Below, piece by piece: positions 37,188 through 64,000 of a DNA stretch of 64,000 nucleotides (within the stretch, counting starts at the first letter, position 1; each line of letters opens with the position of its first letter). Source of the DNA: Candidatus Omnitrophota bacterium (lineage in GTDB: Bacteria; Omnitrophota; Gorgyraeia; Duberdicusellales; 4484-171); the NCBI GenBank assembly GCA_018826075.1, contig JAHKAJ010000014.1, positions 20,066 through 84,065 on the forward strand, in the 5' to 3' direction. The position numbers and the translations under genes were made by a program. The notes under the pieces were generated by a model. That model saw nothing but the letters and a program-made list of their open reading frames with translations, did not search any database and was not told the origin of the DNA.

Positions 37188-37506
37188 GGGCAGTTCTGCT
37201 TCGCCCTAAAGGAATCTACGTTTCAAGAATGCAAATCCCGAACCTGACTTAAGATATTTCTCAAATTCTTCTGCGCGTGCTTTATTTGTAAACGTAATAT
37301 ATGTCTGCAATTTCCAAGGCATATAGCGTTTCGTATATAACGAATCTCCCTTGTTATGCTCTCTTATCCTACGCTCTAAATTCTGAGTGAAACCTATATA
37401 ACATCTAGCTGGATATTCTTTGCTCGTTAAAATATATACAATATTCATCTTCAGTTCCTGCGAAGCCCTACTGTTATTTACCTATCGAAGGGCGAAGCAG
37501 AACTGC
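37188..37506. mobile_element. About 320-bp unit bounded by 20-bp perfect inverted repeats (GGGCAGTTCTGCTTCGCCCT), carrying only a small GIY-YIG nuclease gene
   Basis: The left arm 37188..37207 is found reverse-complemented at 37487..37506. The right arm overlaps the last 6 nt of tRNA-Gln. Confidence 0.45.
37206..37448 (-). CDS. GIY-YIG nuclease domain protein (UPF0213-like, 80 aa)
   Basis: IVYILTSKEYPARCYIGFTQNLERRIREHN with the GIY...YIG motif. Confidence 0.65.
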   Translation of the reverse strand: MNIVYILTSKEYPARCYIGFTQNLERRIREHNKGDSLYTKRYMPWKLQTYITFTNKARAEEFEKYLKSGSGFAFLKRRFL

Positions 37507-37572
37507 CCGGTCTGGACTCGAACCAGAAAAGGCAGCTCCAAAAGCTGCTGTGTTACCGATTACACTACCGGG
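37501..37572 (-). tRNA. tRNA-Gln (anticodon UUG), CCA not encoded
   Basis: Hand-folded cloverleaf. Acceptor stem UGCCCGG/CCGGGCA with the U1-A72 pair and G73 discriminator (Gln identity), D-arm GUGU/ACAC, anticodon loop UUUUGGA, T-arm UCUGG-UUCGAGU-CCAGA. Confidence 0.8.
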
Positions 37573-37591
37573 CAATTTTAGTGGTATACTA

Positions 37592-38008
37592 TTATTCCGA
37601 ATCCTTGACTTTCTGCTCTTCCCGGCGGTGATCTTTGCTCGGGGATGTTTTTTCGCGCTGATAAGCATCCAAAACTTTACTTTGAAGATAATCGCGAAAT
37701 TCCTGATTGATCGGGTGGGCTAAATCCTGATGGGTTGCTCCCCGATTTTCATCGCTACTCCTGGGAGCAGGCGGTAACTGCACCCCGCAATAATTGCAAT
37801 ACTGACTGCCAACATCTACTTTTTTGCCGCAGCGGGGGCAAAACTGCTTCAATTTACGCGCCGGCATAGCAACAAAAAGGCCGCTATTTCCTTCAATAAC
37901 CTTGATATTCCTGACTACAAAAGAATTATCAAGGGTGATTGTTGCATAGGCTTTAAGCCGTTTTCCCTCACCTTCTCGAAGTGAAACCCTGACTTCTGTG
38001 ATCTCCAT
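37592..38008 (-). CDS. spoVG: SpoVG-family protein with a C-terminal zinc-ribbon extension
   Basis: MEITEVRVSLREGEGKRLKAYATITLDNSFVVRNIKVIEGNSGLFVAMP, then CPRCGKK...CNYCG. Confidence 0.75.
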   Translation of the reverse strand: MEITEVRVSLREGEGKRLKAYATITLDNSFVVRNIKVIEGNSGLFVAMPARKLKQFCPRCGKKVDVGSQYCNYCGVQLPPAPRSSDENRGATHQDLAHPINQEFRDYLQSKVLDAYQREKTSPSKDHRREEQKVKDSE

Positions 38009-49288: not shown

Positions 49289-49993
49289 CTAAAACTTCTT
49301 TTTAAGCTCGGCGGCGAGAATAATCGCTTCAGCAATATCTTTCATTGACAGACGCCGGTCCATGCTTGATTTACGGATAAGCGTATAAGCTTCCTCTTCG
49401 CTGATTTTCTGATCCCTCATTAAGATCCCTTTGGCTTTCTCAATCTTTTTCCGGGCTTCTAGTTCTTCCTGGATCACCCGGGTTTTTACCAAAAGCTCGG
49501 TGTTCTCAATAGCTACGGCTGCCTGGTTAGCAATTGTACTTACCAGTTCAATGTCGCTTTTGGTAAATTTGTATACCGCGGTCGTATAGCAATTAATCAC
49601 CCCGATCACTTTTCTCTTAACCATCATCGGAACGCTGATCATCGAAACCAAGCCTTCCCGGCGGGCCAGTTTCTTTTCCTTGTAACGTGTATCCTCCAAA
49701 ACATTGAGAATGGTGACCGGTTTTTTTTCCTTGGCTACAAACCCGACAATACCCTCTCCGACCTTTAAACTCCTCTCGCGCAAATATTCCTGGCTTAAAG
49801 CCTGGGTAGCCCTGATCTTTAACTCCTGACTCTGGGGATCAAGTAGCCAAAGAGCACAAATCTTGGCCTGCATGACATTGGCAGTCAGGGTGACGATCAA
49901 CTTAAGCATATCCTCCAGGTACAGATCAGAAGTGATAGCCTTGGCGATTTTACTTAAGGTATCAACGTAGGTTTTGTAAGAAGTTTTTTTCAT
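49289..49993 (-). CDS. GAF-ANTAR RNA-binding antitermination regulator
   Basis: GAF domain, then a C-terminal ANTAR motif: EELEARKKIEKAKGILMRDQKISEEEAYTLIRKSSMDRRLSMKDIAEAIILA. Confidence 0.8.
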   Translation of the reverse strand: MKKTSYKTYVDTLSKIAKAITSDLYLEDMLKLIVTLTANVMQAKICALWLLDPQSQELKIRATQALSQEYLRERSLKVGEGIVGFVAKEKKPVTILNVLEDTRYKEKKLARREGLVSMISVPMMVKRKVIGVINCYTTAVYKFTKSDIELVSTIANQAAVAIENTELLVKTRVIQEELEARKKIEKAKGILMRDQKISEEEAYTLIRKSSMDRRLSMKDIAEAIILAAELKKKF

Positions 49994-50239: not shown

Positions 50240-51769
50240 ATGGAACGTGAATATTTAAGCCCCAGCCAAGCTGCTAAAATCTTAGGTATCTCCCGTCAAG
50301 CAATCATTGAACGGATTAAACACGGGACCCTCTACGCTGAAAAAGTAGGCAGCCGCTATATTATACCTAAAGCTGAGGTTGCTGCCGGAGAAGCCGCACT
50401 GCAAGAAAAAGATCTGAGCAAACCCGGAGCTTTAAAAACCAGCGGCCGAAAAAAGACTTCTAAGGAAATCTTAGACCTTGTACACAAACACAGCATCAGG
50501 ACAATACAGCTCTGGTTTGTTGATATCCTGGGAATTTTAAAATGCGTATCGATAACCGAAGGCGAACTAAAGGCTGCCCTGGAACACGGCAAAGGATTCG
50601 ACGGTTCATCAGTAACCGGCTTTGCCGAAGCTGAAGAAAGCGATATTCTTGCCTTCCCTGACCCGAATACCTTTAAAATACTGCCTTGGACTAAAGATGA
50701 ACCGATTGCCCGGCTATTCTGCGATATCCTTAACCCGGACCTGTCGCCTTACCCCGGAGACCCCCGCTATGTATTAAAACGGGCCCTCCAACGGGCGACT
50801 AAATTAGGCCTTAATTTTTATGTCGGCCCGGAAATAGAATATTTTTATTTTAAATCTGATCGTAAACCAGAGTTGATTGACGAAGGCTCATATTTTGAAT
50901 TAATACCTAACGATTTAGCCAACACTTTAAGAAATAAAACCATCCGGGCTTTAGAAGAAATGGGCATTGTCATGGAGGCCAGTCATCATGAAGTAGCGCC
51001 TTCACAACATGAAATTGACCCTCAATACAACAACGCCTTGGTTATGGCCGACAATGTAGTGACTTCTAAATTCGTAATTAAAGAAATTGCTCAACAAAAC
51101 GGAGTCCATGCCACTTTTATGCCTAAACCGCTGTTTGGACAAAATGGCTCAGGGATGCATGTCCATCAATCGCTATTCAAGGGCGAACGCAACGCCTTTT
51201 ATGACAAAAAGGATAAACACCACTTATCCTCTATTGCCAAAGGCTTTATTGCCGGCCAGCTCAAACATGCCCGGGAAATCTGTTCGTTAACCGCTCAATG
51301 GGTAAACTCTTACAAACGCCTGGTTTCCGGCTATGAAGCTCCGGTCTATGCTTCCTGGGCTCAAAAAAACCGCACTACTCTTCTGCGGGTTCCTTTGTAC
51401 CGGCCGGGAAATGAAAAAGCCACCCGGGTGGAACTGCGCTGCCCTGACCCGGCTTGCAACCCTTATCTGGCTTTTGCGGTAATGCTGGCAGCCGGCCTGG
51501 AAGGAGTTGAAAAAAATTATGAACTGCCCGTACCGGTTGAACCTAATATTTACCACATGGCTATGGAAGAAAGGGAAAAACGCGGGCTGATTTCACTTCC
51601 GGGAAACCTTTTTGAAGCAATTTTAGAAACCGAAAAAAGTGAGTTCGTTAAAAAAACTCTTGGCGAGCATATCTTCAGCCGGTTCTTGTTTAATAAAAAG
51701 AAAGAATGGGAGGATTATCGTATCCAAATTACCGAATATGAAATCAAAAAATATCTTCCCCTGCTTTAG
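50240..51769 (+). CDS. glnA: Glutamine synthetase type I with an N-terminal excisionase-type helix-turn-helix domain (HTH-GS fusion)
   Basis: Residues about 5-50 LSPSQAAKILGISRQAIIERIKHGTLYAEKVGSRYII (HTH_17-like). GS motifs FDGSSV, KPLFGQNGSGMHVHQSL, NPYLAF. 509 aa. Confidence 0.8.
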   Translation: MEREYLSPSQAAKILGISRQAIIERIKHGTLYAEKVGSRYIIPKAEVAAGEAALQEKDLSKPGALKTSGRKKTSKEILDLVHKHSIRTIQLWFVDILGILKCVSITEGELKAALEHGKGFDGSSVTGFAEAEESDILAFPDPNTFKILPWTKDEPIARLFCDILNPDLSPYPGDPRYVLKRALQRATKLGLNFYVGPEIEYFYFKSDRKPELIDEGSYFELIPNDLANTLRNKTIRALEEMGIVMEASHHEVAPSQHEIDPQYNNALVMADNVVTSKFVIKEIAQQNGVHATFMPKPLFGQNGSGMHVHQSLFKGERNAFYDKKDKHHLSSIAKGFIAGQLKHAREICSLTAQWVNSYKRLVSGYEAPVYASWAQKNRTTLLRVPLYRPGNEKATRVELRCPDPACNPYLAFAVMLAAGLEGVEKNYELPVPVEPNIYHMAMEEREKRGLISLPGNLFEAILETEKSEFVKKTLGEHIFSRFLFNKKKEWEDYRIQITEYEIKKYLPLL

Positions 51770-51773
51770 GTTA

Positions 51774-52256
51774 TCACTTTCCCAAACGTAATTGGAAATT
51801 CACTGTTCCATCAGACAGGACTACCCGGTCAGAAAGAATCTCAATAACTACATTGTCGCCGACCCGGTCACCGAGGCCGACTATTTTCCCGTTGATCACT
51901 GCTTTAGGGCTATCCTTAGACCAAATAATACCCTGAAGTGATGAACCGCTATTAGAAATATCCTTGACTATCATCTCATGTTGATTAAACGGATCACGAG
52001 TTAACTCAAAACCCTTGGTTTCTTCTTCCAACTTGCGGTACAGACCTTCAGTAGGTTGATTCTGCTCTGACGAAGGATACAAAACATCGTAAGGGATGTT
52101 GGCACCTTCAGTCCTGGTTAAGACTGATGAATGCAGGGTTTTCTCCCGGCGGGCCTTGATCTTGCTGACAGTTTTTTGAGCATTAGCTAATGCCAAAATT
52201 AAAATAATCGTTAAACCTACAGTAATCGCTAATTTAAGCTTATTTTTTTTATCCAT
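51774..52256 (-). CDS. Pilus assembly protein, PilP-like (TM-anchored, no lipobox)
   Basis: 160 aa, N-terminal TM, beta-rich C-terminus. Sits where pilP would follow pilO. Confidence 0.3.
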   Translation of the reverse strand: MDKKNKLKLAITVGLTIILILALANAQKTVSKIKARREKTLHSSVLTRTEGANIPYDVLYPSSEQNQPTEGLYRKLEEETKGFELTRDPFNQHEMIVKDISNSGSSLQGIIWSKDSPKAVINGKIVGLGDRVGDNVVIEILSDRVVLSDGTVNFQLRLGK

Positions 52257-52261
52257 TTTTT

Positions 52262-52843
52262 TTATGATAAAAGATAAAAACTTATTCCCAGACGGACTTT
52301 TAAATCCCGGTTGCTGCCGGAGTTGTTTTTATTTACCTCTAAATTATCGACTATCACCAAAGCTGAAAGCTCTTGCTTTAGAAGCTCGATATATTTAACC
52401 AAATCCTTATAGGAACAATCGAGGCTAATTGCAACCGTAATCCTCTGACAGGCTTTATTATCAACAGTCAGATTTTTCTGATTTTTATCCACCAGATTTT
52501 TTTTAGGCCCGGGATTGATCGAGACTAAGTTTACCTTCGCCTTGCGGGCAAGATCGGAAATCATCCTCAAAGGCTCCTCTTCTTTAACCGGAAACTTGCC
52601 TTCAAGAAAATCGAATCTTTCCTTAAGCATTCTGATGCTCTCTTCCAGGGGCTGGCCTTGATCCACCATCATCTGGATATCCTGAATTTCCTTTTGCTTA
52701 GCCTGGAGTGTGCTTTTAAGCTGAGACATTTCCTTTTTGCCAGGTATATAGACAAAAAATAAGAATATCACAAAAACCAGTATCGCCAAGCTGGCGGCAA
52801 TGATTATTTTTTTTTGAGTTTTAGTTATCGAATTTATACTCAT
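52262..52843 (-). CDS. pilO: Type IV pilus assembly protein PilO
   Basis: 193 aa. N-terminal TM, coiled coil (LKSTLQAKQKEIQDIQ), PilO-like periplasmic domain. Confidence 0.6.
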   Translation of the reverse strand: MSINSITKTQKKIIIAASLAILVFVIFLFFVYIPGKKEMSQLKSTLQAKQKEIQDIQMMVDQGQPLEESIRMLKERFDFLEGKFPVKEEEPLRMISDLARKAKVNLVSINPGPKKNLVDKNQKNLTVDNKACQRITVAISLDCSYKDLVKYIELLKQELSALVIVDNLEVNKNNSGSNRDLKVRLGISFYLLS

Positions 52844-52861
52844 TTTGACTCTTTTTAAATC

Positions 52862-54490
52862 CTAACCGGAAATATCGCAACGGATTTCAAAACTCTGGTT
52901 AAGGCCTTCTTTTTTTGATGAAGTTAAAGCTGCTTCAGTAAAAAAATCCGAGGCCTCAAGCTTTTTCATAAATTGAGTTAAAACTGTTTCGGCCACTGCT
53001 CCACTGGCTTGAATCTGGCCCTTTAAAACCAAAGTTGCCGCGTCCTGTTTTAAAGCTAGGCTTTCTAGAGTAATTTCATTGGGTACCAGGTTGCTCAAAA
53101 CTATCAGTAATTTATCCACCGGGACTTTACCCTTCTGGAGTTTGATTATTAAACCATCCCTGGCTAGAATGTTCTGCCGCAAAACCCTGATTTCACTGAT
53201 AGTCTCCAGGTGTTTCTGGGCATTGGCAATCCTTGATTTGTAATCATTAATCTTAAGCCTGACCATAAAAAAAGAAAATAAAAATATTGCGACTATGGCT
53301 ACCGCTGAAACTCTTAAGGAAATTTTCTGGATCAACTCTGATTTTTGAGCTTTAATTTCCTGAGGCAGCAAATTAATCGCCGCCGAATCAGCTAAAGCTG
53401 CCCCTATAGCGCTTAAAAGCTGCGGGTAGTTAGAACCTAAATCTTTAAAACTGGCTGATTCTGGGCCAAAATCCGGTAAAACTAAAGGTGACACCTCAAA
53501 AGATAACTCCTTGGCCAAAAAACTATCCAAATTTTTTAAATTACTGCCGCCGCCGACAAGACAAAGCCGCGTGATCAAAGGCTGGTTAAACTCCGAAGAA
53601 AAGTAATCAGAGGTGCGTTTTAATTCTTTGACTAAAAGTTCAAGATGCGGCCGCAATAAAGAAATCATCTGGATAGCTGTGATTTTCTCACCCAAATCCT
53701 GGCTCTGATCTTGAGGAATACCAAAGGCTTGTTTTATGTTTTCGGCTTCCTGGTAACTAAGTTGAGTTTTGCCTTTATCGGAAACTAGGGTTCCGGTCAA
53801 ATCCTGAGTAAGCTTCTGGGAAGAAAACGGTAGTTTGCGTATGAATTTCAGCCGGCCCTGAATATAAATATATAAAGTAGTTTGATCGTAGCTTAGGTCA
53901 AGCACTACCTGGGTTCCTGAGTCCGGAAAATATTTTTTTAGAATATTGCCGTAATTAAGCGGGGCCAAAGAAATCTTCGAAGGCTTAAGATTGAGTTCCT
54001 TTACCAAGCCGATATATTCATTCAGGGCTTTCTCCTCGACCAAGGCAAAAACTATCTCATTTTTTTTAGTTCCTTCCTGATCGCTGTATTCACGGACCAA
54101 TTCCCAGCCGATAACTGCCTTTTCTAAATCAAAGGCAAGGTCTTCTTTAAGCTGCCATTTAGCTGCACCAATAACTTCCTGCCTGGGTAAAACCGGAAGC
54201 TGGAGGTGTTTTATAGCCGCAGAATCAAAATCAGGGATGGTCAGATAAAATTCGGGATTTTCAGAAGAATTCTTTTCTAAAAAAGACCGGATTAAAGCGG
54301 TTAATTCTTCTGGTTTGCCGCCGCCGGCCAGGGATAATTTTTCCACCCGCCAGTCAAGAAGGTTAATTCCTTTTTTGTGTAGCTGTAAATAGGCCAACTT
54401 ACAAAAAGCCCGGCCGAACTCAATAGATAAAATATGTTTTGGCCTCTTCTTTGAAAAAGTAAGGTATTTCTCAAGGGCAAAATCAATCAT
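52862..54490 (-). CDS. pilM: Fused PilM-PilN pilus assembly protein
   Basis: N-terminal actin-like ATPase fold (about 350 aa). Then the conserved PilN INLLP motif, a TM helix and a periplasmic domain. Confidence 0.7.
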   Translation of the reverse strand: MIDFALEKYLTFSKKRPKHILSIEFGRAFCKLAYLQLHKKGINLLDWRVEKLSLAGGGKPEELTALIRSFLEKNSSENPEFYLTIPDFDSAAIKHLQLPVLPRQEVIGAAKWQLKEDLAFDLEKAVIGWELVREYSDQEGTKKNEIVFALVEEKALNEYIGLVKELNLKPSKISLAPLNYGNILKKYFPDSGTQVVLDLSYDQTTLYIYIQGRLKFIRKLPFSSQKLTQDLTGTLVSDKGKTQLSYQEAENIKQAFGIPQDQSQDLGEKITAIQMISLLRPHLELLVKELKRTSDYFSSEFNQPLITRLCLVGGGSNLKNLDSFLAKELSFEVSPLVLPDFGPESASFKDLGSNYPQLLSAIGAALADSAAINLLPQEIKAQKSELIQKISLRVSAVAIVAIFLFSFFMVRLKINDYKSRIANAQKHLETISEIRVLRQNILARDGLIIKLQKGKVPVDKLLIVLSNLVPNEITLESLALKQDAATLVLKGQIQASGAVAETVLTQFMKKLEASDFFTEAALTSSKKEGLNQSFEIRCDISG

Positions 54491-54533
54491 ACCCTTAAAT
54501 TATAAGTCTTTTCCGAAGCGGTTACAAGTATTT

Positions 54534-55130
54534 TTAAAAACTTTTGATTTCAGCGCTGGAAGTAAGGTTAGTGGAACCCTGCCAATCATCAAAATTTCCG
54601 GTCGCGGTTTGGACATTGAAGTTGATGATTACCCGGCGGATATCAACCAAAGCATCAACCCCGGAAATCCAATCAGCGTCTAGAGCCTTCTTGTAGATGA
54701 AGATAGCTCCTGGAGTATCTTTTCCATCAATGGTAGTCAAGGCTGAAATATAATAAGGGACAGCTCCTTCAGCTGACCAGCTGGTTCCTTGATCACTGCT
54801 GGTTGAACGATAAATATGGCCGTCGCCACTATCCCAACGAAACCTCGCTGAAAGTGCAGCTGCCGGATAACCATAACTATAGGAAAACTGAACAGCTGAG
54901 GCATCGATTATGTTACGAGTATATCTTAGACCCCGGGCGTCGGGATTACCTTCGATGATTATACTGTTGAGTTCATCAGCAATCTTCTGGGTATCCAACT
55001 GCCGCGGGCTATAAACAAACAACTGAATAAAAAAAATCACGGCACCGGCTACAGCCGCCGCCACAATCGAAATTATCAACATCGTCATGATTAGCTCAAT
55101 TAAGGTTGCAGCTTTTTTTGTTTTTACCAT
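54534..55130 (-). CDS. Minor pilin / pseudopilin (prepilin-type N-terminus)
   Basis: KKAATLIELIMTMLIISIVAAAVAG. Confidence 0.6.
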   Translation of the reverse strand: MVKTKKAATLIELIMTMLIISIVAAAVAGAVIFFIQLFVYSPRQLDTQKIADELNSIIIEGNPDARGLRYTRNIIDASAVQFSYSYGYPAAALSARFRWDSGDGHIYRSTSSDQGTSWSAEGAVPYYISALTTIDGKDTPGAIFIYKKALDADWISGVDALVDIRRVIINFNVQTATGNFDDWQGSTNLTSSAEIKSF

Positions 55131-55888
55131 GAATAGCTTGAAGTCTCGGTTAGGTCACTCATTATAAAAACTAAACTACTGACTGCGCTTAAGCTTTTAC
55201 TGAAAGTAAACAAACCGGTATTAGCATAAGTTGTTCCGGCCGAAAGAGTAAAGTTTGTCTCTAAAGTTATGGTCGATCCGGAATTTCCAGTACCGCTCCA
55301 TCTCTGACTTGCGCCCATGGTGATAGTCTTAGCCTTTATGCCACTTGTGCCAGTAAAGCTGATGATTACACCGGTAATGGTTATATCGCTGGCACCGGTA
55401 TTTCCCAAGGTAACATTCTGTAAATTCGTACCGGCAATGCTTCCACCAGACACTGCTAATGAATCTGCTTGGCCTCCGCTGCCAACGCTTCCGCCACCGC
55501 TACCTGAACCAAATGAAACATTAGCCAAATAAGTAGTTAGCTTTACTAATTGGCTAGCACTACCACCTTCATAAACCGTAACCGTGACTTGTTTTAAGGT
55601 GCTGTTTGAACCAGCAACATAGGCAACTTCACGCCTTAAATCCTGGCTGTAACCTTCGTAACTTGATGTATTACTATCATAGCCATCAGCTAAGGTAGCA
55701 TTGTTGTAAGCTAAATTGTTAACTTTGGACATTTCCAGTTTAGCTAAGCCAGCGGCAACTGTTAATTGACGGGAATAAGCTATACTTTTTATGTATTCCA
55801 TAGTTATCAGCCCGACCGGAATCATCACTATGACTGCAATCACTATGGCAATAATCGACTCGATAAGGGTAAAACTGTTTTTATTCAT
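55124..55888 (-). CDS. Minor pilin (prepilin-type N-terminus), Gly/Ser-rich
   Basis: NKNSFTLIESIIAIVIAVIV. GSGSGGGSVGSGG linker. Confidence 0.6.
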   Translation of the reverse strand: MNKNSFTLIESIIAIVIAVIVMIPVGLITMEYIKSIAYSRQLTVAAGLAKLEMSKVNNLAYNNATLADGYDSNTSSYEGYSQDLRREVAYVAGSNSTLKQVTVTVYEGGSASQLVKLTTYLANVSFGSGSGGGSVGSGGQADSLAVSGGSIAGTNLQNVTLGNTGASDITITGVIISFTGTSGIKAKTITMGASQRWSGTGNSGSTITLETNFTLSAGTTYANTGLFTFSKSLSAVSSLVFIMSDLTETSSYSW

Positions 55889-56664
55889 GGCATTAGGTGT
55901 TCCTGAGACTCTTCCCAGGAAATAATCTCACTTGTCCCCACATCGTAAGCAGCTTTAAGGGTACGCCGATAAGTATCCGGCGCTACTACTTTACCGGTTG
56001 AGGTGATCATCATCGCGTTAGCGCTGCCTAGGCCGGCATCCAATAACATAATCTCAACCGTACTGCCATCACTAAAAGTAACTACTACTGAAATGGTCTT
56101 TGAGCTGATACTGCTGCCCACGCTCCAGTCCAACCAGACATCATTCTCGGTTGTACCGGCCGGTATTGTATAATCAATCATGTCTATATTGGTTCCGCTG
56201 GGAGCAGTTCCGCTCCACTCAGAAGTAGCCCGGCCTAAATCTATATTAATTAAGTTTTCTCCATTGTTAGGGGTCCAACTTACCTGCATGTGAGTTATAG
56301 TAAGGTCAGTTGCACCCACATTAGTCATACTAATATTTTTAATTTTACGGTCAGCGACTATGCTAGGGGAACTACAATCAGCAATAAAAAACATACCTGA
56401 ACCGCCAAACGAATAATAAGTATTAGCAGCGATTTGAGTATCAGTCTGGGCAGTTACCAAGCCGTCATTTTTATAGTCTGCTACTGCGGCCATGACTCCG
56501 GCCTGGGCAGCGTATAGAGCTGTTTGCTGATTAATATTGGAGATGTTATACCTTAAAGCTTCACTGATATAGGTGGCTATTCCTAAAGCGACAATAGCCA
56601 TTAAAACCACTGCAAAGATTACAGTAATTAAAGCAAAACCTTTATTGGCGCTTTTTAATCTCAT
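55885..56664 (-). CDS. PilX/GspK-like minor pilin
   Basis: KGFALITVIFAVVLMAIVALG N-terminus. 259 aa. Confidence 0.5.
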   Translation of the reverse strand: MRLKSANKGFALITVIFAVVLMAIVALGIATYISEALRYNISNINQQTALYAAQAGVMAAVADYKNDGLVTAQTDTQIAANTYYSFGGSGMFFIADCSSPSIVADRKIKNISMTNVGATDLTITHMQVSWTPNNGENLINIDLGRATSEWSGTAPSGTNIDMIDYTIPAGTTENDVWLDWSVGSSISSKTISVVVTFSDGSTVEIMLLDAGLGSANAMMITSTGKVVAPDTYRRTLKAAYDVGTSEIISWEESQEHLMP

Positions 56665-56721: not shown

Positions 56722-57102
56722 TTAGTCCTGGAGAAAAGAACCATTAGCAAAGGTGTAAGTGTAATTATTACTTGCCGGGCCAGTATAACTGGTTGAGTTT
56801 ACCTTAGTCCAATCGTCAGTCACACCACCTTGGGCCAGAACATCGTCAAAACAAGCATTGGTTTTATTGCAAACCGCACTACTTGCGCTATCTAGATTGC
56901 TGGGATAACTACAGGTTCCGCCGGCGCACTGATTAGCATAATAGGTCGCAATCCCTGAACGGACTCCGCCGACTACTCCATCTTCCGCCGCGATTTTAGC
57001 TTGCGACTGAAGATCATAGTATTTAGGTATGGCTACGGCTGCTAAAATTCCCAAAATAACAATGATCATGATCAACTCGATCAAAGTAAAACCCTTCTTC
57101 AT
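56722..57102 (-). CDS. pilA: Type IV major pilin
   Basis: MKKGFTLIELIMIIVILGILAAVAIPKY. 126 aa. C-terminal Cys pair. Own terminator downstream. Confidence 0.8.
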   Translation of the reverse strand: MKKGFTLIELIMIIVILGILAAVAIPKYYDLQSQAKIAAEDGVVGGVRSGIATYYANQCAGGTCSYPSNLDSASSAVCNKTNACFDDVLAQGGVTDDWTKVNSTSYTGPASNNYTYTFANGSFLQD

Positions 57103-57115
57103 GCATATACCCCCT

Positions 57116-58336
57116 TCATCGTTTAAAAACCGCCATTAAATTCCACATCGGCAAAAATATACCCAAAGCCATAAGCAGGACCCCCAAACCTAAAATCAGA
57201 AGCATCATCGGCTCGATCAAAGAACTGAAATTATCAATCGTATATTCTATCTGAGTATCGTAATAATCCGAAATGAATAAAAGCAACTCATCCACCTTTC
57301 CTGAATCTTCGCCTACTGAAACCATCTGGATAACTGCCGGAGTAAACAGACCACTTTTCTTCATCGGACTGGCAATTCCTTCGCCTTCATTTACCGCTTT
57401 ACGGATATTATTTATGGTATCTTCAACCACCACATTGCCCACCCCTTGGGAAGCTAACTCTAGAACCCTCAAAATCGGCACTCCCGAACGCATCAAGGTT
57501 CCGGTAGCCCGGGCAAAACGGGACATATAGACTTTGAGAAAAAGCGGCCCAAAAACCGGAATTTTCAATTTAAACTTATCCCAAAGAAATCTTCCCGGCT
57601 TAGTATTGATATACTTATATAAAAAGAATATAGCTCCACCAACTAGTATAGCAGTAGCCCACCAGTATCTAGTGACCGCATAGTTAGCCCAAATAAGTAT
57701 TTTGGTTGGAAGCGGTAAAGCCACTGCAGCCGCGCTGTAAACCTTGACGAATTTTGGAATTACAAAAACAATCAAAATGATAAATGCCACCACCATCGAA
57801 CAAACTACCATTACCGGATAGCGGGTTGCCGTTTTAATCTGCATCCTGACCTTTTCCTCATGAACCCCTAAGGCGCTTAAACGTTCCATGGCCTCGGATA
57901 AAGTCCCGCCTTCCTCGGCAGATTTAAGCATATTAACGTAAAGTGGGCTAAAAACTTTCGGATGTTTTTCTAAACTAGAAGATAAATCTCTTCCCTCCCG
58001 GACATCCTGTGATACCTTTTCTAAAGTTTCCTTAAACAGCTTGTTGTTGGTCTGCTCGCCGAGGGCTTTTAAACTGGCGATGATGGTGACTCCGGCTTTC
58101 TGTAAGGTGGCAAACTGCCGAGTAAACATATTCAGCTCATTAAGCCTGACTTTACGCAAACGAGCAGCCCAATTATCAAAAAAACTATCCTTTTTGTTCA
58201 TCTCCCGAATAGAAGTAGGCAAATATTCCATCTCTTTTAACTTCTCAGCTACCGCGTTTTCAGTCAACGCTTCCATTGAGCCGCTGACCAGCTTACCATA
58301 CTTATCACGTGCTTTATATTGATACTTGGCCATCAC
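57116..58336 (-). CDS. pilC: Type IV pilus platform protein PilC (T2SS F family)
   Basis: 406 aa. Duplicated T2SSF domains and 3 TM helices. Confidence 0.85.
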   Translation of the reverse strand: MMAKYQYKARDKYGKLVSGSMEALTENAVAEKLKEMEYLPTSIREMNKKDSFFDNWAARLRKVRLNELNMFTRQFATLQKAGVTIIASLKALGEQTNNKLFKETLEKVSQDVREGRDLSSSLEKHPKVFSPLYVNMLKSAEEGGTLSEAMERLSALGVHEEKVRMQIKTATRYPVMVVCSMVVAFIILIVFVIPKFVKVYSAAAVALPLPTKILIWANYAVTRYWWATAILVGGAIFFLYKYINTKPGRFLWDKFKLKIPVFGPLFLKVYMSRFARATGTLMRSGVPILRVLELASQGVGNVVVEDTINNIRKAVNEGEGIASPMKKSGLFTPAVIQMVSVGEDSGKVDELLLFISDYYDTQIEYTIDNFSSLIEPMMLLILGLGVLLMALGIFLPMWNLMAVFKR

Positions 58337-60007
58337 TTAAACCTTAGTAACTCTTAAGACTTCCTCAATTGTGGTTACACCTTGCGCTACTTTCTCCAGA
58401 CCATCCTCTCTTAAAGTTTTCAATAAGCCTAAAGACAAAGCTTTCTCACTTATCTGGTCGGCAGTTTTTTTCTCGTTAACCATCCTGCGTATTTCTTCAT
58501 TGATGGTGAGGAATTCAAATATACCTATTCGGCCGGAGAAACCGCTTCCTTCACAGTTTTTACAGCCTTTGCCGCGGTAAAAATCTCCTTTGGCCTTATC
58601 CCCAAGATCCTTTAACGCTGGGTCTACCGGAGTATATTTTTCTTTGCACTTATCACAGATAACTCTTACCAGCCTCTGGGCGACTATACCGATGACTGAA
58701 CTTGAGATTAAAAACGTTTCGATACCCATATCAACCAAACGGGTCAATGAAGAAACCGCATCATTAGTATGAAGGGTTGAAAAAACCAGATGCCCGGTTA
58801 AGGAAGCCCGGATAGCAATATCAGCGGTATCTTTATCCCTGATCTCACCGACCATAATAATATCCGGATCTTGACGTAAAATAGCCTTCAGGCCTTCAGC
58901 AAAAGTAACTCCGATTTTTGCATTCACCTGGGTCTGGCGGATTAAAGGCAATTCGTATTCAACCGGATCTTCAATAGTTATAATGTTTTTATCCACCGAA
59001 TTAATCGTAGTCAAAGCAGCATAAAGAGTAGTAGTTTTTCCTGACCCGGTAGGCCCGGTCACTAAGATTATCCCATTGGGCCGACGGATCAGTTCTAAAA
59101 AACTATCTAATTTTTCTTTGGATAAACCTAAGTCACTCAAACCCAAAATTACTGCTGATTTATCAAGAAGCCTCATTACTATGTTCTCACCGTGTACGGT
59201 AGGAAAGGTAGAAACTCTTATATCCAAACTGCGGTTTTCCACATTCAGGCTGATCTTTCCATCCTGGGGTCGACGACTTTCGGCTATGTCTAAATTGGAT
59301 AAAACTTTAATCCGCGACGCTATTGCCCGGCCTACCCCTTTAGGCAGGTTATAGGCTTCCCGTAAGCTTCCGTCAATACGATTGCGAACCAATAGATTCT
59401 TGGCCTCCGGCTCGATATGAATATCCGAAGCCCGCTCTTTAACCGCTTTTGAGATTATTAGATTCAATAACTTGACTACCGGTGCCTCTTCAGCCACCTC
59501 AGCCAAATCCTTATCTTCTCTACCAGTAATCTTATCGGCATCAATAAAAGAAACTATTTCATCTACAGTACCGGGGCCTCCGTAATAACTATCCAGTATT
59601 TTTTGGATGCCGGCTTCGGAAGCTACTACCGGTTCGATCGTATCTAATTTACTGATTTTTCTGGCCTCATCTAAAGCTACTATATCCTGCGGATTTAACA
59701 TAGCTACCGAGAGACTTGAACCAACCTTGAACAAAGGAACCATCTTGTGTTTTTTAGCTATTGACTCAGGGATAAGTTTAGTCAAATCGGAATCAATTAT
59801 ATAATCCCGCAAATCCATATAAGGTACACCTAAAGATTTAGCCATGGCTTTGGCAATATCTTCTTCACTGATAAACCCCAGCTTTTCCAAAGCCCGGGTC
59901 AAAGAAAGGCCAGTACGCTTGGTCTCATCCTTGGCCTTGATGAGTTGTTCGGGAGTTATCAGCTTCTCTTTAAGTAAGAGGTCGGTTATCTCTTGTTTTT
60001 TTGTCAT
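58337..60007 (-). CDS. pilB: Type IV pilus assembly ATPase PilB (GspE family)
   Basis: N-terminal T2SSE_N domain. Walker A GPTGSGKTT. Asp box, His box, tetracysteine CDKC...CKNC. Confidence 0.85.
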   Translation of the reverse strand: MTKKQEITDLLLKEKLITPEQLIKAKDETKRTGLSLTRALEKLGFISEEDIAKAMAKSLGVPYMDLRDYIIDSDLTKLIPESIAKKHKMVPLFKVGSSLSVAMLNPQDIVALDEARKISKLDTIEPVVASEAGIQKILDSYYGGPGTVDEIVSFIDADKITGREDKDLAEVAEEAPVVKLLNLIISKAVKERASDIHIEPEAKNLLVRNRIDGSLREAYNLPKGVGRAIASRIKVLSNLDIAESRRPQDGKISLNVENRSLDIRVSTFPTVHGENIVMRLLDKSAVILGLSDLGLSKEKLDSFLELIRRPNGIILVTGPTGSGKTTTLYAALTTINSVDKNIITIEDPVEYELPLIRQTQVNAKIGVTFAEGLKAILRQDPDIIMVGEIRDKDTADIAIRASLTGHLVFSTLHTNDAVSSLTRLVDMGIETFLISSSVIGIVAQRLVRVICDKCKEKYTPVDPALKDLGDKAKGDFYRGKGCKNCEGSGFSGRIGIFEFLTINEEIRRMVNEKKTADQISEKALSLGLLKTLREDGLEKVAQGVTTIEEVLRVTKV

Positions 60008-60035: not shown

Positions 60036-61364
60036 TTAACGGCGGATTCGTAAATTTTTAGGAAGGCTGATCGAAAAAGTAGTCCCTTCATCAACCTTAG
60101 ACTCGACTTCTATCTTTCCGCCGTGCATTTCAACGATATCCTTAACGATCGATAAACCTAAACCGGTTCCCTTAACTCCTTCTTTCAAACTGCTTTCCAG
60201 ACGGCTGAAACGGTTAAACAGGCGGCTTAAGTCTTCTCCGGGAATGCCGATACCGGTATCGGCAATCTTAATTTTAACATCGCTATCAGCATCTTCCAGC
60301 TTTATTTTAATCTTTCCCTTGGGTTTATTATACTTAACCGCATTATCAATAAAATTAGTTATTACTTCATAAAGCTTGTCTTCATCTCCCCAAATCTCTA
60401 TTTTTTTATCGGTAAGGATTCCCTTGATTTCAAGGCCTTTTTTTTCAATCAAAGGCAAAAAAGTATCAGTAGCTGATTTTACCATATTGGTTATATCAAA
60501 TAGTGTCCGTTTCATGTGGTGCAAACCGGCCTCAGCTTTGGAAAAATCCAATAAATCATCAATTAAACCGTTTAGACGCCGGATATTTTGTGATGCCAAA
60601 TTCAATAACTTCTTCTGTTTTTCGTTAATCGATCCGGTTATCTCATCTAAAACTAACCCTACTGATTCTTTAAGAGCAGTCAAGGGAGTACGCAATTCAT
60701 GCGATACGTTAGCGATAAATTCGGACCTTAAAACATCTAACTCTTTGGCGTCTTCCCGAAAACGTACATTGACTACAGCTATTGCTGACAAGTCAGCTAT
60801 CCGGTTCAATACATCTAAATCTTGCTCATTGAAAATTTCTCCGGATTCTTTATTATTAACATTAATAACCCCGATTACCTTATCGTAAACTTTCAAGGGA
60901 ACGCTTAATAAAGAGTCAGTACTATAACGGCCGCCTCTTTTGGGAAACCGAGGATCTTTGCTTATATCCTTGATTAAAAGCGATTGCCCGGTCTGGGCTA
61001 CCCAGCCAGATACACCTTCGCCCAGTTTAACTTTTGCATCTCTGATGATTTCCTTATCTAAACCTTTAGCGAACTTAATCAGCATCTCTCCGCTGCTTTT
61101 GCCCACCAGCATCAGCGAGACTATTTCCACTGACATCACTTCGGCAATCCTGTCGACCAGTATATTCAAAGCTTCTTCTAAGCCAGTCGAGCTTAAAACG
61201 TCACGATTAATTTCATAAGCCACTCTTAATTTAAAAAATTCTTCTTCTAGAGAATCACGGCTTTTGTCTCTAAGCTCGCCCTTCAATCGGCTGAAATTAC
61301 CCGAAGAATCTCTCTGAGATTTTTTTCCTTTGATAAGATTAATTAACCAGTTGTTCAGCGCCAT
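60036..61364 (-). CDS. GAF-domain sensor histidine kinase
   Basis: GAF, then HisKA (VSHELRTPL) and HATPase_c (GTGLGLSIVK). Appears cytoplasmic (no TM). Confidence 0.8.
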   Translation of the reverse strand: MALNNWLINLIKGKKSQRDSSGNFSRLKGELRDKSRDSLEEEFFKLRVAYEINRDVLSSTGLEEALNILVDRIAEVMSVEIVSLMLVGKSSGEMLIKFAKGLDKEIIRDAKVKLGEGVSGWVAQTGQSLLIKDISKDPRFPKRGGRYSTDSLLSVPLKVYDKVIGVINVNNKESGEIFNEQDLDVLNRIADLSAIAVVNVRFREDAKELDVLRSEFIANVSHELRTPLTALKESVGLVLDEITGSINEKQKKLLNLASQNIRRLNGLIDDLLDFSKAEAGLHHMKRTLFDITNMVKSATDTFLPLIEKKGLEIKGILTDKKIEIWGDEDKLYEVITNFIDNAVKYNKPKGKIKIKLEDADSDVKIKIADTGIGIPGEDLSRLFNRFSRLESSLKEGVKGTGLGLSIVKDIVEMHGGKIEVESKVDEGTTFSISLPKNLRIRR

Positions 61365-61368
61365 AAGA

Positions 61369-61740
61369 TCAGCCTCCTGTTAATTCTTTGATTTTTGCCA
61401 GTAAGGCCTTAGGTTCAAATGGCTTGACTATATAACTGTCAGCTCCGACATCCTGGCCCATCTTTTTATCTGATTCTTGAGCCCGGGCCGTAAAAAGAAT
61501 TATCGGAATTTTTTTATACTTCTCGTCAAATTTAAGCATCCGGCAAACCTTATAACCGTCTATTTTCGGCAGCATCAAATCAAGGATTATCAGGTCCGGT
61601 TTCTCCTTCCTGGCTTTATCCAAAGCTTCCTGGCCGTCAAAAGCCGATAAAACTTCATACCCGTTAGCTTCCAAACGCATCTTTACTAACTCAACTAAAG
61701 CCTGTTCATCATCAACCACTAAAATTCTTTTTTTGCTCAT
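61369..61740 (-). CDS. Single-domain response regulator (CheY-like receiver)
   Basis: LVVDDE...D(54)LMLP...K receiver motifs. 123 aa. No output domain. Confidence 0.8.
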   Translation of the reverse strand: MSKKRILVVDDEQALVELVKMRLEANGYEVLSAFDGQEALDKARKEKPDLIILDLMLPKIDGYKVCRMLKFDEKYKKIPIILFTARAQESDKKMGQDVGADSYIVKPFEPKALLAKIKELTGG

Positions 61741-61742
61741 CG

Positions 61743-62138
61743 TCAGATATCCTCCCTGACTATTGTTTTTTCAGCCATACCTAAAGCCGCTCTCAAAGCT
61801 TGCTGAGAATCAGAATAAGCGCTAATTTTAGGAACGAAGGCAATTACACCCAAATTTTCGGCTCCTTTAATTGACTTTTCATCAGAATAAGCAGTAAACA
61901 TAATTACCGGAATATCGCGATTAATCTTTCTTAAAGCTTTTAAGGTGACTAAACCGTTTTTTTTTGGCATTAAGTAATCAAGTACCACAATGTCCGGTTT
62001 TCCGGAATTTACAATTTCCAAGGCCCGATCCCCATCAAGAGCAGTTAGCAAATCATAGCCCCAACTTTCAATTCTTGTACCAATTGTCTCTAAAATATCT
62101 TGTTCATCATCTGCTAATAAAACCCTTAAGCCACTCAT
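61743..62138 (-). CDS. Single-domain response regulator (CheY-like receiver)
   Basis: LLADDE...VVLDYLMP receiver motifs. 131 aa. Confidence 0.8.
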   Translation of the reverse strand: MSGLRVLLADDEQDILETIGTRIESWGYDLLTALDGDRALEIVNSGKPDIVVLDYLMPKKNGLVTLKALRKINRDIPVIMFTAYSDEKSIKGAENLGVIAFVPKISAYSDSQQALRAALGMAEKTIVREDI

Positions 62139-62191
62139 GCCCCCTCCTGATTTGAGTTAAAAGCTACACCCTTTTGACTAATTTAAGAAAA

Positions 62192-62452
62192 TTAACCCAA
62201 TTTATCCCAAGGATTTGTTAAAATTTCCTCTATGGAAGTAACTAAACGGTCAATATTATTTTTAGTAATAGTAAGTAATTTTTTTTGCTTAGGGTTTAAT
62301 TTACCGGGAACCTCCTCTGCCACTAGAGACACAGCTTCCTTAATTACCGCTAATGGTGTCCGCACTTTGTGTTCAATTATGCTAACCAATTCATTTTTTA
62401 GCTTTTCTAAGTCAGATTTTTGGCTCATCAGCAATTCCTTTCTTTTTTTCAA
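62192..62452 (-). CDS. Stand-alone HisKA/DHp domain protein (86 aa), paralogous to the DHp of the adjacent kinases
   Basis: IEHKVRTPLAVIKEAVSLVAEEVPGKLNPKQKKLLTITKNNIDRLVTSIEEIL matches SHELRTPLTALKESVGLVLDEITGSINEKQKKLLNLASQNIRRLNGLIDDLL of the 60036..61364 kinase. Confidence 0.55.
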   Translation of the reverse strand: MKKRKELLMSQKSDLEKLKNELVSIIEHKVRTPLAVIKEAVSLVAEEVPGKLNPKQKKLLTITKNNIDRLVTSIEEILTNPWDKLG

Positions 62453-62518
62453 CTACTATTATAAATAAACTGCTGGTTTACGCAAGGATATTTACAAATT
62501 TATCAAATAATACCCTGG

Positions 62519-63175
62519 TTAAAAGGAAAATTTCAGTTTTGTTCCTAGAACATGGGTGTCGTTCCATTGGTCTGACTTCTCGCTGGACTCCCAGAGGTGA
62601 TAGATCTCGCCGTCAAGATTTTTAAGGATTTTCAGGCTGAAGCCTGCGAAAAGACGGTTTTTGTTTAAAGTCTCAACGTCAAAATCATAAAAGATCTCAT
62701 CGGCTATATAGGGTTGGATTTCTAACTTAGTAAGTTTAAACGGCGCCTTAATGGTGAGTTTATTGCGGTAACGCCAAAAGTTATCAGCATCTTCCCGGTT
62801 ACGATACTCCAACCGCAGTTTATTGCCGAAAGCCACATCCCAAAGTTTCCATTTTACATCAGCGTTAAGGTTAGGCTGGTTTTCTACCTTCCAGCTGCCA
62901 CTCCTCTCTTCAGTGATGTGGCGATAGCTTAAAGTCAAATCCAGCCATTTAGCTAAACCGGAATAAGTAATCCCTAAATCCGAATGGCGGTAGTAAGGAT
63001 TTGAAGCATTATCGCCCCAGCGAAACTCCTGGTTGAAGCTTAACTTCCAGTTATCGTTTATTTTTTTAGAAACACTCTCATTGTTCCAATACTGAAAATC
63101 GCCATCATCAAAAGTCCAAGCGCAGACCGGAACGGTCAAAATGATTAAACCTAAAACAAAAACCCTTTGCACCAA
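62519..63175 (-). CDS. Predicted outer-membrane beta-barrel protein (DUF2490-like)
   Basis: Signal peptide, alternating hydrophobic beta-strand pattern, C-terminal ...KLKFSF. Confidence 0.45.
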   Translation of the reverse strand: MVQRVFVLGLIILTVPVCAWTFDDGDFQYWNNESVSKKINDNWKLSFNQEFRWGDNASNPYYRHSDLGITYSGLAKWLDLTLSYRHITEERSGSWKVENQPNLNADVKWKLWDVAFGNKLRLEYRNREDADNFWRYRNKLTIKAPFKLTKLEIQPYIADEIFYDFDVETLNKNRLFAGFSLKILKNLDGEIYHLWESSEKSDQWNDTHVLGTKLKFSF

Positions 63176-63185
63176 CGCCTCCTTT

Positions 63186-64000
63186 CTACAGTGGTAAAGT
63201 GAATAAAAAAATAGTGCCTTTATCTACACCCTCGGATTCAGCCCAGATTTTTCCTTTATGTTCCTCGATAATATCTTTGCAAATCGCCAGGCCCAAACCG
63301 GTTCCCTCGATCTTACCGCTTCTGGCTATCCCCAGTTGTTCAAAAGAACGAAACAACTTAGGAATATCTTTTTCCTCTATGCCTATGCCAGTATCGACGA
63401 TTTTCACTTCGACAAATTCCGGTTTTTTCCCGGTAGAAATGGTAATCCGGCCCTTTTTGGTAAATTTAATGGCGTTACTGATCAAGTTTATCAACACCTG
63501 GGAAATTTTATCACGGTCAAATTTGAAACTGTTTAAATTCTCATCAAGCTTTAGGTCAATCTCCAACTCCTTACGTTCGGCCCAGGAAAGCATAGCCGTA
63601 TAAGTATCCCGGATCAGTTCATTTAGATCGTTATCTTTAAAGCGAAACTCCATTTTCCCGGCTTCCAGTTTCTGAAAATCTAAAACATCATCGATAAACT
63701 CTGCCAAACGATTTACGTTTTTAGTGGCAGTGGCTAAAAGCTCTTTTTGCTCACTGCTTACCTCACCGACTATCCCGTCAGAAACCATATTGATGCTGGT
63801 CTTAATCGCCGCCAGAGGCGTTCTTAGCTCGTGGGAGACCATCGAAACCAGATCCGACTTAAACTGCATGGCTTTAAGCAGTTCCTCTTCGACTTTTTTA
63901 CGTTCGAGGATCTCTTTCTGAAGCTTTAAAGTGCGTTCGTCAACTAAATCCTCAAGGTGCTCTTTGTATTTTTTAAGTTCGTCGGTCATCTCATTAAACA
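63186..64000 (-). CDS. Histidine kinase (HisKA + HATPase_c); N-terminal part probably lies beyond the window end
   Basis: VSHELRTPLAAIK, GTGLGLAICKD. The frame remains open upstream of the ATG at 63989 to the window edge. Confidence 0.7.
   Translation of the reverse strand, partial: FNEMTDELKKYKEHLEDLVDERTLKLQKEILERKKVEEELLKAMQFKSDLVSMVSHELRTPLAAIKTSINMVSDGIVGEVSSEQKELLATATKNVNRLAEFIDDVLDFQKLEAGKMEFRFKDNDLNELIRDTYTAMLSWAERKELEIDLKLDENLNSFKFDRDKISQVLINLISNAIKFTKKGRITISTGKKPEFVEVKIVDTGIGIEEKDIPKLFRSFEQLGIARSGKIEGTGLGLAICKDIIEEHKGKIWAESEGVDKGTIFLFTLPL

Follow-up and report, generated by a model that had tools for sequence, protein, structure and literature searches.

A free DHp protein, its partner receiver and a four-gene signalling unit upstream of a type IV pilus operon in a Candidatus Omnitrophota bacterium

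The stretch of DNA analysed here (the window, 64,000 nucleotides; positions 20,066 to 84,065 of contig JAHKAJ010000014.1, assembly GCA_018826075.1) comes from a Candidatus Omnitrophota bacterium and carries, immediately upstream of a type IV pilus operon, a small gene for a protein that comprises only the dimerisation and histidine phosphotransfer (DHp, Pfam HisKA) domain of a histidine kinase (HK) and has no catalytic ATP-binding (CA) domain. This free DHp protein of 78 aa is the product of a genuine gene maintained by selection, and it belongs to a family of DHp proteins without a CA domain that is accompanied by one type of single-domain receiver, represented in the window by the second of two response regulators (RR2). 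The role we tentatively favour for it is to act on RR2 as a constitutive phosphatase or phosphoryl sink.

The gene cluster and the free DHp gene

All genes located between positions 60036 and 64000 lie on the minus strand, according to the listing of open reading frames (ORFs) and the Pfam domains, and they are separated, in the order of transcription from a HAMP-type sensor kinase (HAMP-HK) to pilB, by gaps of 10, 90, 53, 2, 4 and 28 nt (Table 1). A preliminary description of this DNA, made from the letters alone, had predicted six co-directional genes upstream of pilB, and both the ORF list and Pfam bear this out together with the predicted domains. The first gene had been called a histidine kinase; it does encode HisKA and HATPase_c domains, but only a C-terminal part, cut by the end of the window, is present. 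Its reading frame is open to base 64000, and the sequence "FNEM" corresponds to the end of a HAMP-type domain. The uncut protein, a 508-aa kinase of sCache_3_2-HAMP-HisKA-HATPase architecture, was found in L090, a contig with 99.9% identity to the window. The DUF2490 protein has a signal-peptide-like N-terminus and Phe as its C-terminal residue, and is a putative outer membrane protein. The two receivers, RR1 and RR2, had been described as single-domain proteins without a DNA-binding output, which proved correct: Pfam finds Response_reg alone, and no output domain was detected on either of them in the Pfam scan. RR1 carries D10/D11, D54, T82 and K104, with "FTAY" after beta4 and no Pro following the Lys, and RR2 carries D10/D11, D54, T84, Y103 and K106-P107. 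The kinase at the end of the cluster, a GAF-HisKA-HATPase protein (GAF-HK), has the canonical H-box H-E-L-R-T-P-L.

Table 1. Genes and other features at the locus (window positions)
Feature	Position	Strand	Basis or remark
Sensor kinase (HAMP-HK), C-terminal 270 residues	63186-64000+	-	Pfam HisKA + HATPase_c; cut by window end
DUF2490 protein	62519-63175	-	Pfam PF10677, 105.8 bits
Sigma-70-like promoter element	62458-62485	-	-35 TTGCGT 62485-62480, 16-nt spacer, -10 TATAAT 62463-62458
HisKA-only ORF as first listed, 86 aa	62192-62452	-	Pfam HisKA; IEHKVRTPL
Free DHp (HisKA-only) protein, 78 aa, no CA domain	62192-62428	-	ATG 62428; ribosome binding site (RBS) AAGGA 62440-62436
RR1, 131-aa single-domain receiver	61743-62138	-	Pfam Response_reg only
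RR2, 123-aa single-domain receiver	61369-61740	-	Pfam Response_reg
GAF-HisKA-HATPase kinase (GAF-HK), 442 aa	60036-61364	-	Pfam
pilB	58337-60007	-	Pfam/NCBIfam, MshEN domain
pilC	57116-58336	-	Pfam/NCBIfam
Major pilin	56722-57102	-	Pfam/NCBIfam
Strong intrinsic terminator	56709-56677	-	Hairpin after pilin
Rest of type IV pilus cluster	51774-56664	-	Three minor-pilin-like (N_methyl), PilM-PilN fusion, PilO-like (PilO/T2SSM_b), 160-aa gene
glnA with N-terminal HTH_17 (excisionase/MerR-like)	50240-51769	+	Pfam
GAF-ANTAR	49289-49993	-	Pfam

The small protein had been given as an 86-aa stand-alone HisKA/DHp domain. Its HisKA-only character stands (PF00512, 39 bits against a cut-off of 26.9, spanning residues 19-79 of the 86-aa ORF), but the true product is the 78-aa protein that starts at the ATG. 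The close homologues, which are 62-82% identical, are 77-82 aa long and have a start matching ATG 62428, and the longer product was rejected; since TTG 62452 is sited 5 nt past the conserved -10 box described below, it is very unlikely to be translated. The phosphorylatable histidine was rightly noted as kept (IEHKVRTPL): it is His20 (codon 62371-62369), followed by Lys21 in the H+1 position, Arg23 in H+3 and Thr24 in H+4, and the protein ends in the tail NPWDK. The proposed paralogy with the DHp domains of the neighbouring kinases also holds, with 43% identity to that of GAF-HK (E 6e-17) and 37% to that of HAMP-HK (E 7e-16). No NCBIfam model matches the protein, and its sole sequence match in the PDB is an ordinary histidine kinase. 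Modelling of the protein had been proposed, and the AlphaFold2 (AF2) model of the protein alone, built with 13 family sequences, is a DHp-like two-helix hairpin (helices 2-39 and 46-71, pLDDT 85). The best fold matches in the PDB are DHp domains (GacS, ERS1, LOV-HK chimeras and CpxA; TM 0.62-0.72, with E-values that are not significant), the top one being the GacS DHp of the heteromeric RetS-GacS complex.

A HisKA-only call often turns out to be a gene fragment, and the small ORF is annotated merely as a hypothetical protein, so a non-functional leftover of a truncated histidine kinase had to be considered. This is extremely unlikely. Pairwise Nei-Gojobori estimates among six orthologous genes gave dN/dS of 0.06-0.28 at dS values close to saturation or past it, and such low ratios indicate strong purifying selection on the DHp reading frame. 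The length, the start and the RBS of the gene are kept in at least 10 clusters, and the C-terminal P/S-W-D/E tail is specific to the family. Neither a HATPase_c (CA) domain nor a remnant of one follows the DHp domain, as judged by Pfam and the ORFs: the protein stops 8 residues past helix 2 and RR1 begins 53 nt further on, a distance that leaves no room for such a remnant. The remnant reading was therefore rejected on the dN/dS values together with the conserved -10 box, RBS and ATG.

The sequence 5' of the DHp gene contains a block conserved in five loci, namely CTTGC(A/G)T, 16 nt and TATAAT, then AAGGA and then the ATG, the first part of which is the sigma-70-like promoter element of Table 1. 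Upstream similarity between the loci ends at this promoter-like block, and the gene beyond it varies, being DUF2490, SelR, HAMP-HK, a SerA-like gene or AbiEii. In a consensus promoter and terminator scan, sites were no commoner than in shuffled DNA, and the conserved element escaped the scan, its -35 box agreeing with the consensus at only 3 of 6 positions. Downstream of the block the gene order is stable. In L084, a 134-kb contig with an orthologue of the DHp gene that is 75% identical, the order is DHp(78)-RR(126)-RR(123)-GAF-HK(442), as in the window, the 442-aa GAF-HK being 64% identical to that of the window, and in L002, L003, L005 and L006 the order is DHp-RR1-RR2. Since L084 keeps the order and the upstream genes vary, the conserved unit consists of four genes, DHp-RR1-RR2-GAF-HK.

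The six genes that had been described as a phosphorelay-like cassette are thus all present, but as a single conserved cassette they were rejected: the conserved unit is the set of four with its own promoter-like element, which splits HAMP-HK and DUF2490 from the remaining genes, and these two are variable neighbours. HAMP-HK adjoins the DHp gene in L002, is 2.5 kb away in L084 and is absent upstream in L001 and L008, where its place is taken by SelR and a SerA-like gene, respectively. DUF2490 is found upstream of the DHp gene only in the window and L090 and is missing between the kinase and the DHp gene in L002 and L084; a homologue (24% identical) sits after GAF-ANTAR in L010. An AbiEii toxin-antitoxin pair is located directly upstream of the DHp promoter in L084 (8366-9813) and L001 (307-1760), and these insertions in two relatives mark the position as a gene-insertion hotspot.

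A family of DHp proteins without a CA domain and its receiver

A profile search run exhaustively over 1.84 billion representatives, together with two indexed searches, delineated the family. At 50% identity its members fall into about 20 clusters, and at 90% into more than 50, with matches that run through the C-terminal P/S-W-D/E tail, and the family occurs in three architectures: a single DHp (77-108 aa), as in the window; a tandem DHp1-DHp2 (156-204 aa), mainly in Omnitrophota; and DHp1-DHp2-REC (283-386 aa; REC, receiver domain) in Thermodesulfobacteriota and Nitrospirota. Tandem relatives include L010 9716-10267, L009 9656-10660, and the sequences P0006-P0025 and P0166-P0194. HATPase_c was found in no member of any of the three architectures. 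The family signature is H-x-x-R-T-P-L ... P-G-x-L-N-x-x-Q-K ... D-R-L with the P/S-W-D/E tail, to which the window protein conforms. The AF2 model of the tandem protein P0166 had a pLDDT of 74, and Foldseek gave only poor matches of large rmsd for it. Coverage of the literature was incomplete, and no experiments on a HisKA DHp that is free by nature were found in it, only mentions in censuses and classifications.

The window protein is of the DHp2 type, in which Thr at H+4 is invariant (22/22, 23/23 and 13/13, and in all of the 45+ sequences examined), as is Arg at H+3 save for one His in P0160. The phospho-His is kept in 44 of 45 sequences, the lone exception being an Asn in P0194. At H+1, on the other hand, most sequences have K, V, I, L, A, T or N, with E being occasional, and even closely related orthologues can differ in having K or E there. 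DHp1, which is not part of the window protein, shows the opposite pattern: His in 21 of 22 sequences, always Asp or Glu at H+1, and a variable H+4. The two domains have thus degenerated in a complementary fashion, one keeping the acid and the other the Thr. The hairpin turn of DHp1 also carries an invariant C-x-x-C, which could be a redox or metal site. P0160, a protein of 80 aa, has the H-box HKVHTHL in place of HKVRTPL; this sequence and P0194 are possibly decaying copies, or else a sign that the His is not strictly needed.

The constant companion of the family is a receiver of about 122 aa of the RR2 type, which adjoins the DHp gene wherever the flank suffices (the window, L005, L084, L010, L133 and L087). 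The identity of these partner receivers to RR2 is 50-82%, against only 33-40% to RR1. A receiver of the same type is fused C-terminally to the DHp in more than 20 proteins of Thermodesulfobacteriota and Nitrospirota; it is 58-60% identical to RR2 and retains all phospho-acceptor residues. Fusions of this kind are an argument that the DHp and RR2 interact functionally and do so directly. The alpha-1 surfaces of both the DHp and RR2 are highly conserved, over few independent pairs. RR1, in contrast, is confined to the clade of the window, with orthologues that are 64-67% identical in L002, L005 and L084. By comparison with the PDB both receivers could be typed only through generic similarity to OmpR/PleD/Spo0F-like receivers.

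The kinases near the DHp gene vary far more than the receiver. In the clade of the window the kinase is GAF-HK, in L087 it is a REC-HisKA-HATPase-GGDEF protein together with a CheA cluster, and in L010 and L133 no kinase stands beside DHp-RR2. Three further loci (L014 6-11512, L134 898-8257 and L136 1768-9444) carry a full chemosensory (Che) operon with PAS/GAF-MCP, CheA-REC, CheB, CheW and CheR-TPR. The operon closes with the DHp1-DHp2-REC gene, whose beginning overlaps cheR, and a gene for a REC-REC protein comes next. This arrangement suggests that the DHp1-DHp2-REC and REC-REC proteins form an unusual output or adaptation pair of the chemosensory pathway.

Phosphoryl handling and the possible output

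The residues around the phospho-His allow the possible activities of the protein to be weighed. In a study of four HisKA kinases, Willett and Kirby found that the acid at H+1 is required for kinase activity only, and Thr or Asn at H+4 for phosphatase activity only. From earlier work they summarise that the His boosts DHp phosphatase activity without being essential, and that the DHp domain of EnvZ or NtrB, when isolated, is enough for phosphatase activity and makes cells behave in vivo as if a constitutive phosphatase were present (PMC3510030). The free DHp of the window does not qualify as a histidine kinase, its CA domain being absent and its H+1 residue, Lys21, not acidic, and it has, in Thr24, the residue expected at H+4 of a phosphatase-competent HisKA DHp. 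The loss of the acid, the invariant Thr and the near-invariant His fit a DHp that would be kinase-dead, phosphatase-competent and able to dock a receiver, and for this reason a phosphatase or sink is favoured. This signature of a lost acid and an invariant Thr had escaped the preliminary description. The CheA kinase is not known to act as a phosphatase and depends on auxiliary phosphatases or sinks; several family members end Che operons and thus stand alongside CheA, which we count in favour of the same reading.

In the mechanism that we consider, the protein would most likely form a homodimer with a four-helix bundle and would dock RR2 through the alpha-1 face that kinases use. It would be incapable of autophosphorylation, because there is no ATP-binding domain and the acid beside the His is lost. 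Bound to phosphorylated RR2, and possibly to phosphorylated RR1, it may act either by placing a water molecule for hydrolysis or by drawing the phosphoryl group back to His20. Removal of phosphate in this manner would set the threshold and the lifetime of the signal from GAF-HK, and perhaps of that from HAMP-HK too. Several points weigh against a phosphatase or sink. GAF-HK should be bifunctional already, since its H-E-x-x-T box is intact, and an extra phosphatase is not obviously needed. The His in 44 of 45 sequences exceeds what a pure phosphatase needs and fits phospho-acceptance. A kinase, two receivers and a His domain are the classic inventory of a forward phosphorelay, and the RTPL motif may be conserved for structure or docking, not catalysis.

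That inventory leads to the possible, second-ranking alternative of a relay of the Spo0B/ChpT kind, in which phosphate would pass from GAF-HK (or HAMP-HK) to RR1, then to His20 of the DHp dimer and then to RR2. The unit offers the kinase, two receivers without output and the His domain, with no Hpt protein; the loss of the H+1 acid is likewise expected of a pure phosphotransferase, and the conservation of the His counts on this side. HisKA proteins without HATPase or REC are placed among the "phosphotransfer proteins" in P2CS (PMC2716373), and operons with CheA-REC, DHp-REC and REC-REC proteins could make His-Asp-His-Asp chains. "FTAY" of RR1 resembles the T-x-Y of FATGUY/Spo0F-type intermediary receivers (PMC9981736) and Spo0F is among its PDB matches, but the likeness is weak and generic OmpR-type receivers outscore Spo0F. 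The distribution of the genes is also at odds with a relay: RR1 is clade-specific, and L010 and L133 have only DHp(-DHp) and RR2, with no second receiver or kinase adjoining. A relay furthermore leaves the invariant Thr at H+4 unexplained, this residue being dispensable for phosphotransfer by CrdS (PMC3510030), and the natural His-to-Asn variant P0194 does not suit it. The two activities need not exclude each other, as RedE (see below) shows. The phosphoryl-handling role that had been proposed is thus favoured in either form, relay or phosphatase, but the relay, put forward at the time, ranks behind the phosphatase or sink.

The other proposal made at the time, a dominant-negative decoy whose hairpin would form heterodimers with the DHp of either kinase, GAF-HK or HAMP-HK, and block trans-autophosphorylation, agrees with the identity to the DHp domains of the neighbouring kinases (43% and 37%, and 50% to the DHp of the adjoining HK-GGDEF in L087), with the GacS DHp from the RetS-GacS complex as top fold match, and with the precedent of RocA, a kinase-like modulator with a dispensable His (PMC7028121). 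It is nevertheless very unlikely, because the kinases vary or are absent, the exposed H-x-x-R-T face is conserved and the partner that stays fixed is a receiver. The family stays 50-68% identical beside unrelated kinases, GAF-HK and REC-HK-GGDEF as well as CheA, which has no HisKA DHp, and in two contexts, L010 and L133, no kinase is nearby, while the constant and at times fused partner is of the RR2 type. The solvent-exposed His-x-x-Arg-Thr face, the most conserved part of the protein, would be superfluous for a pure decoy, and the tandem and REC-fused forms are hard to square with the titration of a kinase. A phosphatase or sink for RR2 remains the reading that we tentatively favour.

What the signal of the unit is used for is a separate matter. 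The gap between GAF-HK and pilB is 28 nt long and holds only an RBS (AAGGAG), and the terminator scan found no terminator between GAF-HK and the end of the pilin gene before the hairpin of 56709-56677. The four-gene unit is thus probably co-transcribed with pilB-pilC-pilA, plausibly from its own promoter-like element, in this genome only. The link to the pilus operon, as proposed, is therefore plausible as co-transcription, but pilB is not next to GAF-HK in L084 and L091. The gene 3' of GAF-HK is pilB in the window and L090, GAF-ANTAR in L084 and a radical-SAM gene in L091, the GAF-HK of L091 being 58% identical to that of the window. In L010, counterparts of the pilus genes of 51774-56664 lie ahead of the DHp-RR2 pair, DHp-DHp and RR2 coming directly after pilMN, pilO and a 144-aa gene.

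The preliminary description did not mention a second set of neighbours, the genes of nitrogen assimilation, glnA among them, that recur with GAF-ANTAR near the module. In all four Omnitrophota neighbourhoods (the window, L010, L084 and L133) the DHp module lies within a few kb of GAF-ANTAR. The GAF-ANTAR of the window shares 77-78% identity with two genes, the one directly 3' of GAF-HK in L084 (77%) and another located near the DHp-RR2 pair of L010, and its GAF domain is paralogous to that of GAF-HK (32% identical). The glnA gene occurs in three of the four neighbourhoods, not in L084, and is 76% identical in L010; GDH, GltD-like, NadE or Amt genes also occur. The pilus cluster looks like a lineage-specific insertion or rearrangement, because it splits genes that are adjacent elsewhere (GAF-HK and glnA/GAF-ANTAR). 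On this comparison of gene order, the pilus link appears real as a local operon structure, yet lineage-specific, and the link to nitrogen assimilation and GAF-ANTAR seems at least as strong. Either link could be inherited synteny rather than function.

Control of pilus assembly or retraction through protein-protein contacts of RR2 or RR1, in the manner of PilG/PilH and whatever the chemistry of the DHp, is for these reasons doubtful as the output of the unit. The position of pilB with no terminator until past the pilin gene, the location of DHp-DHp and RR2 behind the pilMN-pilO cluster in L010, and the occurrence of relatives in Che-like operons speak for it, and Che-like systems often control pili. 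On the other side, in L084, the closest of the long relatives, GAF-ANTAR and nitrogen genes come after GAF-HK and pilus genes are absent over 10 kb, and in L091 the radical-SAM gene comes after it; the pilus cluster of the window lies between GAF-HK and the glnA/GAF-ANTAR pair; and what the four Omnitrophota neighbourhoods share is GAF-ANTAR with GDH, a GltD-like gene, Amt or glnA. The comparison with PilG/PilH-type proteins did not hold, since neither RR1 nor RR2 reaches this or any other named family in NCBIfam. Pfam detected no CheA, MCP or CheW, the components by which a Pil-Chp system is recognised, in the cassette. Most likely, then, the free DHp acts on the phosphate of RR2, by removal or shuttling, rather than specifically on the pilus genes.

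Some further features of the pilus and nitrogen genes can be noted. The N-terminus of PilB has an MshE-type c-di-GMP-binding motif that scores above the NCBIfam cut-off, and pilus extension may be gated by c-di-GMP. PilB and PilC of the window are 100% identical to those of L090 and the major pilin (56722-57102 in the window, 10263-10643 in L090) only 92.9%, which suggests diversification of the major pilin at the strain level. The PilM-PilN fusion (542 aa, 52862-54490, minus strand) has a 528-aa counterpart in L010, and the fusion of HTH_17 with glnA is also found in L133. GAF-ANTAR is a putative RNA-binding antiterminator without a receiver domain. In the Rfam scan of the whole window no riboswitch or leader was found near the cassette, glnA or the pilin gene, and the only match at gathering level was a tRNA (37503-37574, minus strand). 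A SpoVG homologue (37592-38008, minus strand) has a zinc-ribbon inside its SpoVG domain, the SpoVG match covering residues 1-117 with a model of 82 positions and Zn_Ribbon residues 52-77.

Comparison with known systems

According to current theory, receivers are dephosphorylated or linked into relays by bifunctional kinases, Hpt proteins, Spo0B/ChpT, and CheZ/CheX-type enzymes. If our reading is correct, a bare DHp hairpin tied to one type of receiver would be a minimal new building block of two-component systems, and nature would be using the behaviour of the EnvZ and NtrB truncations, in which the isolated DHp is a constitutive phosphatase. The chemistry would be a modest extension of the known properties of DHp domains, and the family is coherent; being very small and tractable, its proteins would also suit the study of how a DHp recognises its receiver and of what H+1 and H+4 contribute. 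The tandem CxxC forms in Che operons hint at an unrecognised element of chemosensory output or adaptation, and in Omnitrophota the signalling unit is tied to pili and nitrogen assimilation alike. A wider proposition, unlikely in its entirety, is that the window protein is the minimal member of a widespread third class of His-phosphoryl proteins beside Hpt and Spo0B/ChpT, in which kinase-less hairpins would serve as phosphatases or shuttles of receivers; the tandem forms, with the acid and a possibly redox- or metal-active CxxC in DHp1 and the Thr in DHp2, would be output or adaptation elements of Che pathways, and the Omnitrophota module may couple nitrogen status, through the GAF kinase, GAF-ANTAR and glnA, to pilus expression.

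Among the established phosphotransferases, Spo0B of Bacillus and ChpT of Caulobacter are likewise dimeric hairpin His carriers that have no kinase activity and shuttle phosphate between two receivers. They differ in sequence family and in that both retain a CA-like alpha/beta domain at the C-terminus; the free DHp has no CA-like domain, and Pfam gives HisKA alone and NCBIfam nothing for it. Hpt proteins such as LuxU and ShpA are also small, stand-alone helical proteins with a His that act between receivers, but they are monomeric four-helix bundles of family PF01627, whereas the model of the window protein is a two-helix hairpin, and Pfam gave no Hpt match for it. Hpt domains are not known to carry the T/N phosphatase motif. 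The P2CS database unites HisKA-only and Hpt-only proteins in the class of "phosphotransfer proteins" (PMC2716373), and the free DHp fits this class by domain content, the class being a bioinformatic and not a functional one.

RetS-GacS and RocA-CovS resemble the present case in that the pathway of a true kinase is adjusted by a kinase-like protein that has no productive kinase activity of its own, but RetS and RocA are large membrane proteins with a specific kinase partner, whereas the constant partner of the DHp family is a receiver. Archaeal REC-PAS/GAF-HisKA proteins without HATPase (the AF_1472 type) appear in censuses and have never been studied experimentally (PMC5847659, PMC1183210). 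They share the combination of REC with a HisKA domain that lacks HATPase; compared by their description, they differ in domain order and lineage, and reports of them mention neither a tandem DHp nor a CxxC or a W-D/E tail. The split kinase Rv0600c/Rv0601c of Mycobacterium tuberculosis was considered as a precedent and is not relied on, the source speaking only of two sensor kinases.

The isolated DHp domains of EnvZ and NtrB have the same H-x-x-R/K-T/N-P-L helix as the window protein, but they are laboratory truncations with weak phosphatase activity in the absence of CA (PMC3510030), whereas the window protein is a natural, selected gene product with a family-specific tail and a non-acidic H+1. 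The closest analogue of the favoured function is RedE of Myxococcus xanthus. In the RedCDEF system, RedE cannot autophosphorylate, takes phosphate from RedD and dephosphorylates RedF~P (PMC2755868). The likeness to the window unit lies in the set of proteins encoded together, namely a true kinase, a kinase-like protein incapable of autophosphorylation and two receivers that have no output domain, and it is a likeness of architecture that does not imply homology. The Red system differs in controlling development, and RedE keeps its HATPase_c domain, whereas the DHp protein of the window is a bare hairpin of 78 aa.

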